A stretch of DNA of 64,000 nt from an uncultured Verrucomicrobiae bacterium (GTDB lineage: Bacteria; Verrucomicrobiota; Verrucomicrobiia; Opitutales; JABDGR01). Made by a program: the position numbers and the translations under genes. The stretch spans positions 544,001 through 608,000 of the forward strand of contig CAVXVB010000009.1 of assembly GCA_963765205.1 (NCBI GenBank), in the 5' to 3' direction. A model generated the notes under the pieces. It saw only the letters and a program-made list of their open reading frames with translations. It made no database searches and was not told the DNA's origin. This document shows positions 16,999 through 64,000 of this stretch, piece after piece (the stretch's first letter is position 1; every line of letters begins with the position of its first letter).

Positions 16999-18585
16999 AT
17001 GCCTGCATCCCTGTTTGAAGCCGAAGACCGCCCGAAAGCCGAGGCCTTGTGCCGGCTGACGTGGTGCAACCCGTTTCACGACGAACGCGCCGCGCTCGAA
17101 CGCCAGGCCCTCGGCGACGCTTGGAAAATGCCGCCGCCCGACGGCATGGACTGGGAGGACGGGCTGCCCGTCGCCGCCGGCAACCCCAACACGGATGCGT
17201 TCGCGCCGCTGTCCAAGCGTCTCGTCAATGAGGCGCGGGAACGCCTGCGCCGCCGCACGCCGACCGCCAACGAGAGCGAAACCTACCGCGAGCTAGTCTT
17301 CTTCACGCTCTTTTACCAGTTCGTGGACGAATTCCACCGGCTTATCCGGCAGGCGCGTGAGCGCGGAGCGGCGCCGTTGCGCTGCGTGTTCTACGACCGT
17401 TTTCGCGCGGAGCTGGAGCGCCTCTGCCCGCCGGATGAGCCAGCTTTGCGCATGGAGACGCCGCCCGAGCGCGTCTTCGCAACGTTCTTCCAGGTGCGCC
17501 GCGCGTATGCGCACATTCACGAGTGCATCATCGGCTCCTCGGCGGAGTCGCGCCGGCTGCGCGCGCGGGTCTGGCAGTCCATCTTCACACGCGACATGGC
17601 GCGGTTCGAGCGCGCGCTGATCGGGCGGATGGGGGACTTGATCACGCTCATCACCGGCCCGTCGGGTTCGGGCAAGGAATTGGTCGCGCGCGCCATCGGC
17701 TTGTCGCGCCATGTGCCCTTTGACGTGACGCGGCGGGAATTCGCGGAGGACTACCTGCGCGGATTTTATCCCATCAATCTCGCGGCGCTGTCGCCGACGC
17801 TGATCGAATCGGAATTGTTCGGCCACCGGCGCGGTTCCTTCACCGGCGCGCTCGGCGACCGCCTGGGTTATTTCGAGGTCTGCGGCGCACACGGCACGGT
17901 GTTCCTCGACGAAATCGGCGAGACGGATTTGGGCATCCAGGTCAAACTTCTGCGCGTGCTGCAAACGCGCGTGTTCCAGCGCATCGGCGACACGGAACCG
18001 CGCTCCTTCGCCGGGAAAATCCTGACCGCGACCAACCGCGACCTGGCGCACGAGATGCGCGCCGGGCGCTTTCGCGAAGACCTGTATTATCGCCTCTGCG
18101 CCGACCATGTGCGCACGCCGGCCCTGTGCGAGATTTTGCGGGATGCGCCGGGCGAGTTGGCGACCTTGGTGCGGCACATCGCGGCGCGCGTGGCCGGTCC
18201 GGCGGAGGCCACGGCGTTGACCGACGAAGCCTGCACCGTGCTGCAACGCACGTTGCCGCCCGATTACGCGTGGCCCGGCAATTTCCGCGAACTCGAACAG
18301 GCGGTGCGGAATATTCTCGTGCATGGTGATTATATGCCGGAATCATCCAGCCCGGCTGCAGCCCCTTCGACCAACGGCGCGCCATCCAGCAACGGCCATG
18401 CTTCGCCGGAGTCGTTGGCCGCCGCCCTGGAAGCCGGCGAATGGACGGCCGACGAACTCCTGCGCCGCTACATCAGCCGGGTGCATCACCTGTCCGGCAG
18501 CTACGAGGAAGCCGCCCGGCGACTGGGTGTGGATCGCCGCACGGTCAAGAAATACCTGCGGCAACCTGCGGCGATGACTCAATAG
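16999..18585 (+). CDS. Sigma54-dependent transcriptional activator (AAA+, C-terminal HTH)
   Basis: GPSGSGKELVARAI, ESELFGHRRGSFTGA, FLDEIGE, FREDLYYRL, WPGNFREL, AARRLGVDRRTV. Confidence 0.92.
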   Translation: MPASLFEAEDRPKAEALCRLTWCNPFHDERAALERQALGDAWKMPPPDGMDWEDGLPVAAGNPNTDAFAPLSKRLVNEARERLRRRTPTANESETYRELVFFTLFYQFVDEFHRLIRQARERGAAPLRCVFYDRFRAELERLCPPDEPALRMETPPERVFATFFQVRRAYAHIHECIIGSSAESRRLRARVWQSIFTRDMARFERALIGRMGDLITLITGPSGSGKELVARAIGLSRHVPFDVTRREFAEDYLRGFYPINLAALSPTLIESELFGHRRGSFTGALGDRLGYFEVCGAHGTVFLDEIGETDLGIQVKLLRVLQTRVFQRIGDTEPRSFAGKILTATNRDLAHEMRAGRFREDLYYRLCADHVRTPALCEILRDAPGELATLVRHIAARVAGPAEATALTDEACTVLQRTLPPDYAWPGNFRELEQAVRNILVHGDYMPESSSPAAAPSTNGAPSSNGHASPESLAAALEAGEWTADELLRRYISRVHHLSGSYEEAARRLGVDRRTVKKYLRQPAAMTQ

Positions 18586-18901
18586 CGATTGTTCCAAGTG
18601 TCCAGAATTTAATCGCGCCCAGCCCTGCCTGCTTAACCAATCTGCTGGCCCATTGCCATGACCAAAATACCCACCCCCATCCTCCAAAAAATCAGGTAAT
18701 AAGCTATAAGGGCGCGTGGCGCATCGCCGATGAAGCTCGCAAGGCTATTTAAAAAATCGTCACTGTGCAGCTTCTCGGCTACACCACGACCGGCGCGAAG
18801 CGATGATTGACGCCGGGGCGATGATGGGTAGAGTGAGGCGCGGTGCTTGGAATTCTTCACCAGCGCCTAACCAGGCTTTTCCAAGGGGAGAAACCGCCCA
18901 C

Positions 18902-18976
18902 GCTTCCGTAGTTCAATGGATAGAACACTGGCCTCCGAAGCCGGTGATCTGGGTTCAAGTCCCAGCGGGAGCACCA
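18902..18976 (+). tRNA. tRNA-Arg (anticodon CCG)
   Basis: Cloverleaf GCTTCCG/CGGGAGC, anticodon arm CTGGC-CTCCGAA-GCCGG, GGTTCAAGTCC, encoded CCA. Confidence 0.95.
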
Positions 18977-19018
18977 CTTAAGCCACTGACAGTAAAAGGT
19001 TTAAGTTTTGAGCGAAGT

Positions 19019-19046
19019 TAGGTTGCCCAGTTGACATGGCAACCTA
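19019..19046. promoter_or_regulatory. Perfect 9-bp inverted repeat enclosing TTGACA
   Basis: TAGGTTGCC-cagttgacat-GGCAACCTA. Confidence 0.55.
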
Positions 19047-19109
19047 TCACTGGATTGGATCGGTACAAGCGAGTGGCAATTTTTAGCAAATAGCGGCAAC
19101 CATGACAAG

Positions 19110-19430
19110 GGCCGTGCCACACGCCAAGTTGAAGGCCAGATTCCGGCATCCTGTGCTTGACTGGCGGCCATCAGCTTCTCGGGCCAGTCTACCCGGGGTT
19201 ATCCCGAGCACTTGGCACCTACCCATTGGACGCTGCAACCCAAGGTTCCCCCTCCTCCATGGGCTGTCGCTCGGCAACCTGGCTAGCCCCTGCGGGATTG
19301 TCCCGGGTGGGGTTCGCGTGGAACCGGCTGAGCAACGCGACTGGTCAGCGTAGCTAAGCTTGCCGTCCTTTCGCCCAAAGTCAAATGGCGTCTGCCAGCC
19401 AACTCGTAGCGAGGACGAGCCAGGACCCAC
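19110..19430 (+). ncRNA. Candidate large structured non-coding RNA (or structured ssDNA origin)
   Basis: At least ten nested helices found by eye, several needing G-U pairs only on + strand; no convincing ORF. Confidence 0.45.
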
Positions 19431-19501
19431 GTGCAAACGATATTTCAAGTGGCGATTATTTGGGACTTATTAGAAGTTAGAACAAGCTCAGGCCCGCCAA
19501 C

Positions 19502-19534
19502 AAAAGCCCCCCGGCCCTTGCGGGCCGGGGGGCC
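19502..19534 (-). terminator. Intrinsic terminator
   Basis: Minus strand ggccccccggccc-gcaa-gggccggggggc-TTTT, just after the 19561 ORF. Confidence 0.8.
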
Positions 19535-19560: not shown

Positions 19561-19938
19561 CTACACTATCTCACGAAGCGCCAGAAACGGCACTTGCAAC
19601 TTGCCATTGAACACTTCCAGCTCGCCGAGCGTGGCTTCCACGCGCGAATTCAATTTCGCGTGGGTGAATGTTCCCTTGATGAGCTGTCCCCGCTCCCCGG
19701 GCACGCTGGGCGCCGGGAAACCCGCAGCGGGAAGTCGGACCAGTTGTTGAATTTCGAGGAGTCCGCTGGCCTCGCTATGCACCTCGTAGACGAGGCGCAC
19801 GTTATCGGTGGCCGGCCGGTCTCCCTTGGCGGCAAAGGGCGCTCGAAACGCCTTGGCGGTGAGAAGCACGCCACGCAGGAGGAGTCCGTTTGGGACTTCG
19901 AGAGGTTTCGGTAAACTATCAGGTGTTGGTTTATCCAT
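19561..19938 (-). CDS. Hypothetical protein, possibly phage/plasmid ssDNA-binding (OB-fold-like)
   Basis: 125 aa, beta-strand-rich pattern, followed by a terminator; function is inference. Confidence 0.5.
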   Translation of the reverse strand: MDKPTPDSLPKPLEVPNGLLLRGVLLTAKAFRAPFAAKGDRPATDNVRLVYEVHSEASGLLEIQQLVRLPAAGFPAPSVPGERGQLIKGTFTHAKLNSRVEATLGELEVFNGKLQVPFLALREIV

Positions 19939-20100
19939 GACATTTGATTTCTATCGCTAGTGTCGACGTGGAGGACGCCGAAGCCTTCATACGCCTGGAG
20001 TTTGAGAATTGTTCCAATCTCCCGGCGTAAAAGTTGTTTCCACGGCTGCCGGGTTTGCGCCGAGCGGACTTTTTCGCCGCATTTCACCGTGACGCGACTG
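19935..20100 (-). pseudogene. Possible decayed rolling-circle Rep fragment
   Basis: VTVK...WKQLLRRE...LQAYEGFGVLHVD resembles spacing of HUH Rep motifs 1-2, second His lost. Confidence 0.25.
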
Positions 20101-20274
20101 GCCCAATCGGCCAGGCGCAGACGGGATCAGGCTGATGGTGCCCTTTTTTCCCTAACCAAGCTGACAGGGACACCTCGAATTTAATTGGCGTCCTTATTTT
20201 AGGCGCCACTTGCGCCTGCCCCATCGGATAGGTTCGACAGGCGGGGAAAATTCGCGTTGCCTTGCTGGACTCCC

Positions 20275-32693: not shown

Positions 32694-32874
32694 GGCCTTC
32701 TGCTGTGACCGAGACCTCGCCAGTGTTCCTACTCTGATAATTATATAACAAAGGGAGCTCGCCACCCGGCGGTGGCTGCCACGCCGTAAACCGGAAGGCA
32801 AAAGCCGCCAGGAGAGCACCCACCTAAGCACCAGAGGTTCAGAACACCTGCTTTTACGGCATAAGTGGAAGGTC
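32694..32874 (+). ncRNA. ssrS: 6S RNA
   Basis: About 180 nt; ends ggccttc/gaaggtc pair; AT-rich central bubble; GAGAGCACCCACCT...GGTTCA...ACGGCA motif typical of 6S; T-run after. Confidence 0.8.
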
Positions 32875-32946
32875 ATTTTTTTTTGGCGGGTTGATTGGGC
32901 GGGGTGAGGCGGCGCAGGCTGGGCTGTTGCCTTAAAGCCGCAAGAC

Positions 32947-47646: not shown

Positions 47647-48207
47647 ATGGCCACCGCAGTCAAAGCCTGGACGGAAGAGGAATTGCTGGCGCTCGAACAC
47701 CCCGGCGCCAAATGCGAACTCATTGACGGAGAACTCATCATGAGCCCGACTGGTTACAACCACGAATATATTGGGGCGCGATTGCTCACCAAAATGGCGA
47801 TCCACGCGGAACGCCACAAGCTCGGTTCGGTCTGTGGCTCCAGCTTCGGTTGCCTGATGGAATCGGGCAATGTGCTTTCCCCCGACGTTTCCTTTATCCG
47901 CCGCGACCGCCTGCCCCGTACCGCCGAAGAGAGCAAAAGATTTTTCCGTGGTGCTCCGGACATCGTGGTCGAGGTTTTGTCGCCGTGGGATCGCACCAGC
48001 CGCCTGCACGAAAAGATGGAGGAGTATTTCCACAGCGGCGCGCGCCTGCTCTGGGTCGTCAACCCCGAGGAGAAAACAGTGGAGGTCTGCCGCGCCCAGA
48101 CCGCATCCCGCCTGCTCACTGAACGCGACACCCTCGACGGCGAGGACGTGCCCCCCTGTTTTCGCTTGCCGTTGGCGGAGTTGTTTGGTGACATCACTGG
48201 CACATGA
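47647..48207 (+). CDS. Uma2-family endonuclease
   Basis: ELIDGELIMSP...H, SPDVSF, APDIVVEVLSP, KMEEYF..G..LLWVVNP. Confidence 0.9.
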   Translation: MATAVKAWTEEELLALEHPGAKCELIDGELIMSPTGYNHEYIGARLLTKMAIHAERHKLGSVCGSSFGCLMESGNVLSPDVSFIRRDRLPRTAEESKRFFRGAPDIVVEVLSPWDRTSRLHEKMEEYFHSGARLLWVVNPEEKTVEVCRAQTASRLLTERDTLDGEDVPPCFRLPLAELFGDITGT

Positions 48208-48306
48208 TCTTGGGGTGTCGCATTAGTTGTATCCGCTGAGCGTTATTGGTAGATGCAATTTATGGTTTCACTCTCTTTTCCAAATTGAACTATCTCCATT
48301 TAGGTT

Positions 48307-49311
48307 ATGCCTATCAACGACAGCATCGAGAATAGGACTTTTGAGGACCTGTTCAGCGGATTGGTCAACTTTGAGGTGCCATTTTTTCAAAGGAATTATT
48401 CCTGGGGCAGAGAGCAGTGGAAAACCTTGTTAGAAGATATTTGGGAGCAAATTATTGCAGATGTAATCGAGCAAATTAAATTTGAGAATCCTAATGACCT
48501 CATCACGCGTGAGCAGCTAAGCAAGCATTTAATCGAGCATGAGCATTATTTTGGAGCGATCGTCGTTCTTGAAAAAATGAATACGCACCCTGCATTAAAA
48601 TCATTTTTGATAATTGATGGTCAGCAACGAATTACAACGGCTTACCTACTATTGGCAATCGTCTCAGACCTCCTAAAAGAACAGGAGAATTTGTCGGCAA
48701 ATGCTCAATCTGTCCTACAGAAGTTGGATTCGTGTCTTCGAAACAATGTCGACCCTAAAGGCGATGATTATCGTCGTCTTAAGATAATCAGCAACAAAGG
48801 TGACCGTTTACCAACATACTTAAAGCTTAATAAGCAGAACCCGGAGTCTCCTTCGTTAGTTGTTGATAATCAACTATACACTCCGGGAAAAAACCAAATT
48901 GATGCGTTATGGGATTACGCTTATAAAAAATTGAAATCTTACAACGTCCCCCAACTTTGTGTCTTTGCAGAAGCAATCCTAAACGGCCTAAAAATTGTTT
49001 GGATACCACTGGACGAACACAAAGACAATCCACAGGCTATCTTTGAGGGCTTAAACGATAAAGGCATGCCCCTATCAGCAGTGGAATTACTATGCAGCTA
49101 CAAAAATACTTTAGGAAACCTTTGTCTTATTGGTGAACGCGCAAATAGTTCTCTTGGGAACGACCCGTTTGAGAGAAAAAGAGGGAGTTATACGGATGTC
49201 AGCGCACTATGCCGCGATATTAAATCGAGGCACGGTACCTGGAATATTTCGGCAATTAAACAGCGCTCAGGTGATTTATCAAAGAAGGCTCTCGAAATTT
49301 GGTCATGGTGA
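48307..49311 (+). pseudogene. DUF262/DUF1524 (GmrSD-like) gene with in-frame internal deletion
   Basis: VPFFQRNYSW, IIDGQQRITT, IFEGLNDKG, then directly NTLGNLCL...NSSLGN..F tail; low GC. Confidence 0.75.
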
Positions 49312-61420: not shown

Positions 61421-62152
61421 TCAAATCTGATAATCCGCGCGGCCATTGGATTCGTGCAGCCCGCATTCGCGTTTGACGCCGTTGAAGCGCGTGTCCTCGG
61501 CGGTCTGCCCGGCGGTGAGGGGCGCGCTGCTGTGGGCGTCGCCGACGGAGACGTAGCCCTTTTCCCACAAGGGGTGGTAGGGGAGCCCGTGCTTCGTCAG
61601 ATATTGGTAAACGTCGCGCTCGCTCCAATCCAGGATGGGGTGGATTTTGTAGGTGCGCTTTTGCAACTGGACGATGTCGAGGTGCTCGCGCGTGCGCGAT
61701 TGCGCGCGGCGCAGGCCGGCCAGCCAGGCGGTCGCGCCCAGTTCCTGCATCGCGCGGTTCATCGGCTCGACCTTGTTCAGGAAATTGTATTTTTCGAGGC
61801 CCTCGCGGCCCTGCTCCCAGAGGCGGCCATGCAGGGCTTCCTGGCGCGCGGCGGTCATCGCGGCCTGATAAACCTTGAGGTTGAGCCGGAGCCGGCCTGT
61901 CAATTCGTCGGCAAAACGGTAGGTTTCGGGAAAGAGATAACCCGTGTCCACAAAGACCACCGGAATTTCCGGCTCGATTTGCGTCACCAAATGCAGCATG
62001 ACGGCGGACTGGATGCCAAAACTCGTACTCAGGATCAACCGGCCGCCAAATTGCTCGACCGCCCAGCGCACGCGCTCTTCCGCCGGGAGCCGTTCCAGGC
62101 GCTCGCTTTCCGCCGGCAGCATCTTCGGGTGCAGCAATGTGGCAGTGTCCAT
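61421..62152 (-). CDS. cysH: PAPS/APS reductase
   Basis: [45 protein letters not shown]. Confidence 0.93.
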
Positions 62153-62317
62153 GGCCTTAATATGACTATCTTGGGTAAGATAGTAAACAATAAAATTGTT
62201 TTTTGCAATCAACATGTTTATAAAAAACATCTTGCAAGATTATTTTTTGGATAAATCCAGCAATCTCTATCGAATATATCGGGGTAAGTTGCTGGTAGAT
62301 TGATCGTCCCTGGGTGC

Positions 62318-62354
62318 GTTGACCCGAGGTAGCTCGCTCCTCGCAACCCCGGGC
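62318..62354. repeat. REP-like hairpin
   Basis: acccgaggtagc-tcgctcctc-gcaaccccgggc. Confidence 0.45.
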
Positions 62355-62516
62355 TGGATGAGGGCAGTCCCGGTCGAATTGCTCTGGCCGATTTACGGAT
62401 ACCACGCACAGAACACTTTTGGCTTATAACAACGGCATCGCTGCAATGATGAGCACTACAGCTAAAGTCTAGAAGCTTTCCATAAATGGTATAATATCCT
62501 GCCAGCCGCAAAAGTT

Positions 62517-62993
62517 TTACTGGAAACCAATATCAGCAACCTGCACTTGAATCGAACTGACATCTTTAAGCCGCACCTTCCCGTCAGAACTGGTAGTTGT
62601 CGCGCCATTACGCCCTACGGTATCTTTCGGAATTGTAGTAAATGTCGTGCTGGTATGCGGCGGGCAATTGACAGTAAACATAAAATCTAGATAATGCGGC
62701 CAATACGGGAGCGCGTTTCCTTTAGCGTCAAAGCACTGAAATGTTAGAGTGATTGTCTTGATGGCTTTGTCAGATTTATTGTAAAGAGTTCCAGAAATAT
62801 TACAGTAATTAGACTCGTTGTTGTAGGCTGCCATATCAGAGAAGATCATAAGAGCCGCATCTCTATGCTTTTCATAAATCGCCAAAAGTGAATTCCCCGA
62901 AACCAATAATAACCTTGCTCGCATAAAAATGACCCGGCAAAAATACGCGGAAACAACAATGCCAACAATGTAGAAAATGGTTCTGCGGTTCAT
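62517..62993 (-). CDS. FxLYD-like domain membrane-anchored protein
   Basis: ISGTLYNKSDK..KTITLTFQCFDAKGN; low GC. Confidence 0.65.
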   Translation of the reverse strand: MNRRTIFYIVGIVVSAYFCRVIFMRARLLLVSGNSLLAIYEKHRDAALMIFSDMAAYNNESNYCNISGTLYNKSDKAIKTITLTFQCFDAKGNALPYWPHYLDFMFTVNCPPHTSTTFTTIPKDTVGRNGATTTSSDGKVRLKDVSSIQVQVADIGFQ

Positions 62994-63215
62994 TTTGCGA
63001 TTGGTTTATGTCTGGAAAATTAACTCCTACGCCAGACCCCGGCAACCCAAAAGGGTCAAATCCCTGCCAGTTCTATCCGATTTGTGTCTTAATGGAATTA
63101 AAAATTAGGGAACTATATACAAAGTTACCCTAAGCCGGAAACCGGGTCTGGCAACCCTAAGCTGCGCCAGCCCCAAACGTAGGGAGTTAAAAAGTGTATT
63201 GGAGGGAAATGAAAA

Positions 63216-63665
63216 CTATTTCCGCTCTTCTTGTGGAATTTCTGTTCCGTCTGCTTGAAACATCTTTATGGCTTCCATTATTTGTGCGTCGGTGGGTCTG
63301 GATACGCCTTTTAAGACTACCAGATAGTGCAAAGCAGCCAGAACATTATTCTCGGTTTTGGCGTGCTTTTTTGTCGTCTTCTTGGCAAAAAGCCCTTGTG
63401 AAATCAATGCTGCCGGTGGGTTATTTAACAGTTCCAGAATATCATCCATTGCCTTGGAACAAAAACTGGATTTTTTGGCATCGTTATATTTCGTATTAAG
63501 ATACCTAGAAAAGACTTCCTTGGATTCAGTAGGTTTTGAATTTGGGCCTAGTCCTCTGACTAGGACTAAATATACCTCGTAATCTTCTGAAAATTTAGTG
63601 AAAGGATAGTCTATGGCTAAATTACTTCCATCCGTAATCTTTTCCAATGCCTCTTTAAACCCCAC
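63216..63665 (-). CDS. Hypothetical low-GC passenger protein
   Basis: 149-aa ORF directly downstream of transposase. Confidence 0.55.
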   Translation of the reverse strand: MGFKEALEKITDGSNLAIDYPFTKFSEDYEVYLVLVRGLGPNSKPTESKEVFSRYLNTKYNDAKKSSFCSKAMDDILELLNNPPAALISQGLFAKKTTKKHAKTENNVLAALHYLVVLKGVSRPTDAQIMEAIKMFQADGTEIPQEERK

Positions 63666-63697
63666 GCCAAGGGGTTAATGTATTTTTCTTGGTCTGC

Positions 63698-64000
63698 TCA
63701 TATAGGAAGGGTGTTTTTCGTGAGTCTTTTATAGCCCAACTGATTGCTCATGGCAACCTTTTCCACGGTATCGGAAAAGACAGTTTGTAGGCCATCTTTG
63801 CGACGGTTAAAACGATAGGCAAATTCGTCAACATACCGTTGCAAATGCTTGCGACTCATTGAATGGTAAATGCCGTAATACCCGCGCTTGAACAAGGCCC
63901 AAAAGGATTCAATGGTATTGGAATGGACATCGCCCCTTCTGACATACTGGCCGTCCTTGTGCTTTAGAATCTTGTGTCGGTAGAACTCTCCCATTTTGGA
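63698..64000 (-). CDS. IS1595-family transposase, C-terminal part
   Basis: H...YVRRGDVHSNTIESFWALFKRG..G.YH.MSRKHLQRYVDEFAYRFN. Confidence 0.9.
   Translation of the reverse strand, partial: SKMGEFYRHKILKHKDGQYVRRGDVHSNTIESFWALFKRGYYGIYHSMSRKHLQRYVDEFAYRFNRRKDGLQTVFSDTVEKVAMSNQLGYKRLTKNTLPI

Follow-up and report, generated by a model that had tools for sequence, protein, structure and literature searches.

In the available part of PMC8464778, RatA, SR4 and SR5 of Bacillus subtilis are described as RNAs that overlap the 3' ends of toxin mRNAs and trigger decay by RNase III. The element reported here is like them in several respects: they have a promoter of their own and a length of 160-260 nt, lie antisense to the 3' end of a toxin transcript, and reside on mobile DNA (same part of PMC8464778). 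Orphan Rhs/CDI arrays consist of a main gene followed by modules of core fragment, toxin and immunity gene; the part of PMC3150448 consulted proposes that modules are exchanged by recombination at conserved coding motifs and calls the exchange mechanisms unknown.

We analysed a 64,000-nt stretch of genome G000 (contig C9, positions 544001-608000; the window). Its minus strand carries one divergent member of a family of structured non-coding RNA genes; the family is dispersed, apparently new and apparently tied to polymorphic-toxin cassettes. Among described systems, the element appears to work most like RatA, SR4 and SR5. Judged by sequence, it has its own promoter on the strand opposite a toxin gene, a trait of convergent antitoxins. 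It fails, however, their defining toxin feature: theirs is a small hydrophobic toxin without a protein antitoxin, whereas here Rhs toxins with immunity genes, or other cargo, are found. It also differs in that one conserved multi-junction fold is common to the whole class, once per cassette, and in that its mRNA overlap is a predicted one. The layout of a main gene followed by modules is that of the orphan Rhs/CDI arrays, but the consulted part of PMC3150448 reports no conserved structured non-coding element between modules, and here one closes many of them.

Integron attC sites and group IIC-attC introns resemble the element in their position at gene 3' ends, fixed orientation, occurrence in arrays and folded bottom strand (partly general background; available parts of PMC3053210, PMC3001079 and PMC7923331). 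The element differs from both: it is 210-362 nt long, branched and unpaired at its ends, has its own promoter, and occurs mostly in the absence of IntI and reverse transcriptase (RT). A helix scan detected no end-to-end helix of the kind formed by R- and L-boxes, and the distal ends vary. Nor was there a match to group II intron Domain V or D1-D4 over the element in Rfam searches of the window, 6 loci and 20 loci.

ROOL, GOLLD, OLE, raiA and MISL are comparable as multi-junction folds with covariation, no known function and a link to mobile DNA; the element is distinguished from them by having no Rfam match at E 0.05-10 and by its Rhs context, which was not found in the literature searched. 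MISL, a motif of Verrucomicrobia, is about 780 nt long and consists mostly of independent hairpins. The element is smaller (210-362 nt) and had no Rfam match. It shares a closing helix around a variable arm with retron msr-msd RNAs, and a conserved 3' end followed by a variable flank with TnpB/IscB omega RNAs, but no RT or nuclease gene was adjacent at any scanned locus. RT (PF00078) was detected in one of five genomes tested and was absent from the closed genome G154, and the TnpB domain (PF07282) was detected in none of five.

Discovery and distribution of the family

A blastn search with the stretch under study found it in 2 of 401 genomes, this one and G001. In G001, one copy and part of another lie behind an Rhs gene that has a Tle1-like domain and behind a small lipoprotein-like ORF. 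Profile searches revealed more distant paralogs in this genome, one of which matched 7 of 10 genomes in the family and, across the order, 20 of 301. A covariance model, R1, was then built from 16 copies, with the window and G001 copies left out. Within the order it matched 23 of 151 genomes, within the phylum 8 of 151 and within the class 9 of 121, and a single genome contained as many as 10 matches; the related genomes carrying the element are not statistically independent. On the minus strand, R1 recognized the window copy at 19088-19360 with 24.9 bits (E 1.3e-7 within 3 kb and 1.8e-4 across the genome); this copy has a mean identity of 49% to the other members. R1 missed the G001 copy, which is shorter by about 85 nt.

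The initial annotation had reported an RNA that it could not assign to a known class, and this held: cmscan against Rfam 15 (E 0.05-10) of the window, 6 loci and 20 loci, long forms included, returned no match over any element. Supposed likenesses to RNase P, to the glmS, cobalamin, c-di-AMP and SAM-I motifs and to the ColE1 primer had no Rfam match either. In the genome_contigs collection, at least 119 stretches were among the matches listed, none of them homologous by blastn or nhmmer; metagenome_contigs gave two matches, both within a coding gene; and five pattern scans of viral_contigs gave 0, 0, 9, 0 and 12 matches, none real. No relative of the element was found in plasmids and phages. 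No description of it was found in the literature searched, though a motif screen may have listed it before. The main texts of PMC5737381 and PMC11109978 contain no mention of Verrucomicrobia, Opitut-, Rhs or MISL.

Of 19 sequencing runs, 4 were compared with the window, all of them as contigs. Those of X1 and X3, from two studies, span parts of the element with 0-2 differences. From RNA run X19, one 204-nt contig covers 19251-19350 with 4 differences at a depth of 2.5 and extends 98 nt beyond the predicted start; because contigs show neither strand nor start, it is not evidence of transcription. Even with a modest role, the family would be a 210-360-nt multi-junction RNA with tree-aware covariation, missing from Rfam, in a phylum with few described RNAs, and the value lies in the family rather than in the window copy.

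Conserved fold and covariation

In the family fold, helices P1, P2 and P5 meet in a three-way junction closed by P1, and P2 in turn closes another junction, from which P3 and P4 branch; a linker, hairpin P6 and a conserved tail follow. RNAalifold on 22 copies predicted 22 pairs in the minus sense and no structure in the plus sense; on 17 copies with other settings, it returned -47.8 (minus) versus -30.3 (plus) kcal/mol. At 26 pairs with two Watson-Crick types, G-U combinations on the minus strand numbered 104 versus 22 for A-C. In the 16 training sequences, from which the structure was itself derived, 88.9% of cells were paired and 29 of 49 pairs showed double changes; none of 500 shuffles reached this, and slid partners gave 32-46%. 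The 36 R1 matches outside the training set, in an alignment fitted to the model, were 85.3% paired, with double changes at 31 of 38 pairs. P1 was paired in 95.8% of cells in the family.

The significance of covariation was assessed with a custom, R-scape-like tree-aware null of 20 replicates. When 66 copies were aligned by fitting to the model, 23 of the 32 proposed pairs in helices P1-P5 passed a two-set test and 8 an all-pairs test. A structure-blind alignment of 45 of these 66 copies (225-312 nt) left 11 of the 32 in the two-set test and 1 in the all-pairs test. Non-canonical covariation (A.A/G.G) in the internal loop of P5 passed the all-pairs test in both alignments, and the single-stranded junction bases were near-invariant across copies. 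Pseudoknots with covariation support were not detected. We consider it very probable that the family is a real, minus-strand structured RNA.

The initial annotation had instead proposed a plus-strand RNA of 13 helices at 19110-19430. All 13 lie where it placed them and 11 are fully paired, the exceptions being 19222-30/19256-63 (7/8) and 19341-50/19389-98 (8/10); G-U pairs on the plus strand do occur in at least five of them, as it had said. The listed helices overlap, and they cannot all form together because bases 19206, 19389-90 and 19418-19 are shared. The annotation had named a folding z-score against dinucleotide shuffles as its own test; the 321-nt region folded no better than shuffles (MFE z -0.34 plus, -0.48 minus), and on single-sequence grounds the plus-strand proposal would fail. 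Possible plus-strand helices of at least 5 bp were only slightly in excess (269 versus 222-255 in six mononucleotide shuffles), and the nine plus-strand helices that could be mapped onto 20 family members in a structure-blind alignment (A3) paired in 29-50% of cells. Three of the 13 (19194-98/19202-06, 19286-90/19309-13 and 19293-97/19301-05) are complements of arms of the minus-strand fold.

With the covarying fold and a promoter candidate on the minus strand, the strand, most helices and the 3' boundary of the earlier proposal were wrong. The conserved element spans 19088-19351, a promoter-like region lies at 19357-19384, and 19385-19430 is without conservation. The notion of a large multi-junction structured non-coding element was right and is retained here, on the other strand. 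Folding z-scores discriminate neither strand nor structure: over 22 copies, the mean single-sequence z was -0.05 (minus) and -0.12 (plus), and the value of -3.07 for the G001 copy on the plus strand became 0.00 with flanks.

Two coding interpretations were rejected. Differences between the window and G001 copies fall 7, 10 and 12 by codon position, which speaks against a coding remnant, and a mini-ORF behind the purine-rich P4 loop was dismissed by eye, its start codon and frame not being conserved in the alignments.

The window copy and its promoter candidate

The divergent window copy is an RNA gene of about 264 nt (19088..19351, minus strand), delimited by the R1 match and by a predicted start near 19351 that follows from the promoter candidate. 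It retains 31 of 35 model pairs, several through double changes. On the model alignment, the closing helix P1 (19167..19349) comprises 19343-19340/19175-19172 and a weak extension, 19349-19346/19170-19167. P2 (19230..19338; 19338-19332/19236-19230) has 7/7 pairs, three of them changed on both sides relative to the family, and encloses the variable P3 arm (19328-19277) and P4. P4 (19237..19265; 19265-19260/19242-19237), placed in the same way, has 6/6 pairs and keeps the purine-rich loop conserved in the family. The P5 arm (19181..19219) appears in the unconstrained fold with pair probabilities of 0.65-1.0; it is variable in the family and up to about 100 nt longer in some copies. Hairpin P6 (19126-19122/19107-19103), which overlaps a sigma-54-like site at 19119-19104, and the conserved 3' tail after it occupy 19088..19126.

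In the structure-blind alignment A3, P1 and P6 of the window copy are the only helices in register; the cells paired number 69/140 for P2, 51/116 for P4 and 15/40 for the base of P5, so that their assignment in this copy comes from the model alignment. The family fold of the window copy lies 13.6 kcal/mol above its MFE, and pair probabilities of P1, P2, P4 and P6 are at most 0.02. This copy is an outlier and may be decaying, and we give roughly even weight to its still working and its having failed.

A sigma-70-type promoter candidate lies at 19357..19384 (minus strand), with the -35 hexamer TTGACT at 19384-19379, a 16-nt spacer and the -10 hexamer CAAGCT at 19362-19357; the latter is kept in the G001 copy. 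A stricter promoter scan of the window did not list this candidate. Across the family, a 20-nt interval upstream of the minus-strand 5' end contains TTG(A/C)(C/A) in 27 of 67 copies, against an average of 4.1 and at most 12 in shuffles; the flanks are otherwise unrelated among copies. TTG alone, located -55 to -47 relative to the conserved core, was found in 46/66 copies versus 8-18/65 in other intervals, and a -10 hexamer of the form xAxxxT followed 16-18 nt past the TTG in only 22/66. A -35-like motif whose upstream distance is fixed speaks for RNA rather than folded DNA, as far as an argument from sequence goes.

A second motif, near the 3' end, fits either hairpin P6 or a sigma-54 site. 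The sigma-54 consensus is GG-N10-GC, and this geometry is present in 43 of 62 copies; among 53 parsed copies, the P6 loop has a length of 7 in 32 and of 14-15 in 20, and RpoN was detected in all five genomes tested. These observations are those expected of a DNA regulatory region in which a sigma-54 promoter at P6 reads into the antisense strand of the cargo gene and the remainder provides upstream sites. That reading leaves long-range covariation and the G-U bias unexplained, and in several copies the geometry has gone while the hairpin stays; such a promoter and the RNA could exist side by side, and we regard the reading as highly improbable. In this genome, copy L158 (contig C9, 881578-881883) points into ureD, about 45 bp upstream of the ORF as called, and might bring the urease genes under the control of its promoter or its sigma-54-like site.

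The decayed element around the window copy

The window locus is a decayed integrated element. The likely integration site is a tRNA-Arg(CCG) gene at 18902..18976 (plus strand; Rfam RF00005, 68.8 bits; ARAGORN). It is followed at 18977..19046 (plus) by a tyrosine-integrase leader that closes with an inverted repeat; the gene to which such a leader belongs is absent here. Look-alikes of this 70-bp leader at five loci (L005, L006, L013, L023 and L024) follow tRNA or tmRNA ends and lead into an integrase ORF, and the L005-type ORF matches a PHROG integrase (E 2.9e-14). Between the leader and the RNA tail, 19047..19086 (plus) probably encodes the last 12 codons and stop (TAG at 19084-86) of a deleted cargo gene that abutted the tail, as family copies usually abut a gene end. 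Upstream of the tRNA, a short degenerate fragment of a second element copy (18754..18782, minus; 26/29 bases identical to a C9 paralog; HMM E 0.049) was recognized, and the site may have been hit twice.

On the other side, a sharp junction with an SSB-Rep element and an intrinsic terminator (19506-19533) make up 19458..19533, as identified from look-alikes and a terminator scan. All five look-alikes (L002, L010, L012, L020 and L022) begin at 19458-60, with unrelated DNA to the left, and this common start suggests a nick site or the fixed end of a small Rep-SSB element. The SSB/G5P-like ORF (125 aa; 19561..19938, minus) is a lead from the Atlas feature PF17426 Putative_G5P at 0.90; it had no Pfam or PHROG match, and no relative of the protein was found in viral contigs. 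The C-terminal remnant of a rolling-circle Rep gene occupies 19650..20108 (minus). It is 84% identical to L019, whose 307-aa ORF matches a PHROG replication initiation protein (E 3.6e-4), and the gene is longer in G002 than in the window.

The tRNA-Arg site, the integrase-leader remnant and the Rep remnant lend support to the earlier suggestion that the RNA was retained from a mobile element. Its further statement, that the RNA faces the SSB gene across a terminator, was correct as to the parts, the terminator at 19506-19533 and the SSB-like ORF at 19938-19561 both being present; the minus-strand element, however, is co-directional with the SSB-like gene and lies downstream of that gene's terminator.

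The annotation's alternative, a single-strand origin, can be extended to an RNA that primes the adjacent SSB-Rep rolling-circle element. This genome has four full copies, two of which do lie about 80-100 bp from an SSB/terminator junction, but the junction also occurs in four other places with no element next to it, none of the 108 nearest ORFs matches a Rep family, and viral contigs, plasmids and phages gave no true match. Such an origin is hardly credible.

Further features were recorded in and around the window. A sigma-54 activator gene (PF00158) at 16999-18585, just upstream of the tRNA, is probably unrelated to the element. A 6S RNA lies at 32694-32875 (64.4 bits), and low-GC stretches at 48001-49000 and 62001-64000 (0.43-0.46 versus about 0.61) are probably acquired DNA. 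Elsewhere in this genome, a Rep-like gene and an integrase are accompanied by a C/A-rich repeat of 53 bp, present as five copies of 100% identity and one partial copy (L154:2314-6441; contig C5, 48313-52440). Weaker copies are scattered across the genome, and a related motif is found at 18616-18704 of the window.

Genomic context and candidate functions

The copies stand tail-to-tail with the cargo genes before them, most prominently with Rhs toxin-immunity modules. An ORF of at least 80 aa ends at the RNA tail in 32 of 59 copies versus 12 of 59 at the other end, and an Rhs peptide pattern (a custom regular expression) was found in the fetched flanks of 26/59 copies on the gene-sense strand versus 1/59 on the other strand; 33 of the 59 have no Rhs motif nearby. 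In the same 151-genome sample, an Rhs core is present in 20 of 23 element-bearing genomes versus 56 of 128 without the element, a comparison confounded by kinship and genome size, and only 20 of 76 Rhs-bearing genomes have the element. In the closed genome G154, which has 12 Rhs cores, 4 of the 7 copies lie 1.3-3.8 kb downstream of a core and share its orientation. Further copies stand behind genes for housekeeping or sugar metabolism, for example those for guanylate kinase and a PEP-utilising enzyme, and in G244 a single copy persists in a genome without an Rhs core.

We read the element as a cassette-end module, that is, a promoter-bearing antisense RNA that would double as a repeated recombination arm of toxin-immunity cassettes, and put the probability at about 40%. 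Because there is little terminator room between the immunity stop codon and the tail, the cassette mRNA would run into the element's complement. The RNA might pair with the 3' end of this mRNA or block read-through, and would set the end and level of toxin-immunity transcripts in the manner of convergent antitoxin RNAs. As DNA, the repeated 250-350-bp block could, next to the Rhs core, offer another arm of homology for the swapping, duplication and loss of modules. In line with such recombination, tandem copies agree at 98% (G052) and 93% (G254) over exactly the element, whereas their flanks are unrelated. An antisense RNA may thus control or shuffle toxin-immunity cassettes. The window copy would have travelled as cargo of the tRNA-Arg-integrated element and lost its partner gene. 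For orphan toxin-immunity arrays, a conserved structured RNA with a candidate promoter closing the modules offers a concrete object for the study of build-up, exchange and silencing.

A plain antisense role needs neither near-invariant junction bases nor non-canonical A.A/G.G covariation. Both suggest a defined three-dimensional fold and are better explained by a trans-acting RNA, be it ligand- or protein-binding, a ribozyme or a decoy for nuclease toxins, that would protect the cell while being carried on conflict cassettes, its orientation inherited rather than functional. The persistence of single copies without Rhs nearby, as in G244, agrees with this, and complementarity of the tail to the last 8 nt of this genome's tRNA-Gln(CTG) is a weak hint in the same direction. 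The tight abutment on stop codons and the several copies per array would then go unexplained, and the patchy distribution (23/151) and frequent decay of copies are at odds with a protective function; we judge the trans-acting role quite unlikely.

The junctions raise a different question. In G052 and G254, an Rhs coding sequence breaks off at the tail and is joined to it without microhomology (two cases, one of them judged against another genome's ortholog). Across copies the tail boundary is sharp, partial copies mostly retain the tail and lack the RNA's 5' part, and short tandem repeats of the tail occur at L178, L261 and L265. All this, together with the copies behind guanylate kinase and PEP-utilising enzyme genes, is what one would expect if the RNA were the active part of a cassette-capture or mobility system with its 3' tail as the precise joining end, and it accounts for the tail junctions better than a cassette-end module does. 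Such a system might use target-primed copying, or RNA-directed strand transfer by some protein; it would build Rhs orphan arrays and drop copies behind unrelated genes.

A matching enzyme was not recovered in the genomes tested: RT was found in 1/5 (and not in G154), TnpB in 0/5, and IntI above cut-off in 1/6. Among 108 neighbouring ORFs, nothing but Rhs repeats recurred, and no RT, Rep family or partner protein was present. Target-site duplications gave no clear signal (12/53 versus 15%), and neither did a comparison for guide-like loops that match target and donor flanks, as in the bridge/seek RNAs of the IS110 family: matches of at least 9 nt to a copy's own flanks occurred in 5-10 of 53 copies versus 9-13% for foreign flanks. 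The promoter lies outside the RNA, yet is mostly kept, and retention of the tail could come from its overlap with stop codons. Capture by the RNA is, in our estimation, rather unlikely. Its boldest form, an integron-like system for polymorphic toxins in which the folded RNA, as ribozyme or ribonucleoprotein, captures or rearranges Rhs modules through its 3' tail without IntI, standard RT or TnpB, is less likely again.

Position after stop codons in fixed orientation, repetition in arrays and a bottom-strand fold with G-T pairs would also suit a folded single-stranded DNA recombination site of the attC type. IntI, however, was missing from five of six genomes tested, the covarying closing helix encloses only about 180 nt and leaves the ends unjoined, there is no conserved GTT at the far end, and an unpaired -35 motif lies outside the fold. 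We hold a DNA site of this kind to be very unlikely.

Y1/RAYT transposases were detected in 5/5 genomes, and no link between them and the element was found; Y1/RAYT genes lie near Rhs cores in G154 and G218. In this genome, the same REP-like hairpin stretch precedes four copies of the element (L155, L156, L157). Finally, seven atypical tRNA genes form an array beside a Y1 transposase-like gene (contig C9, 1287772-1288740), with a weak tail-like match just upstream (E 0.11).
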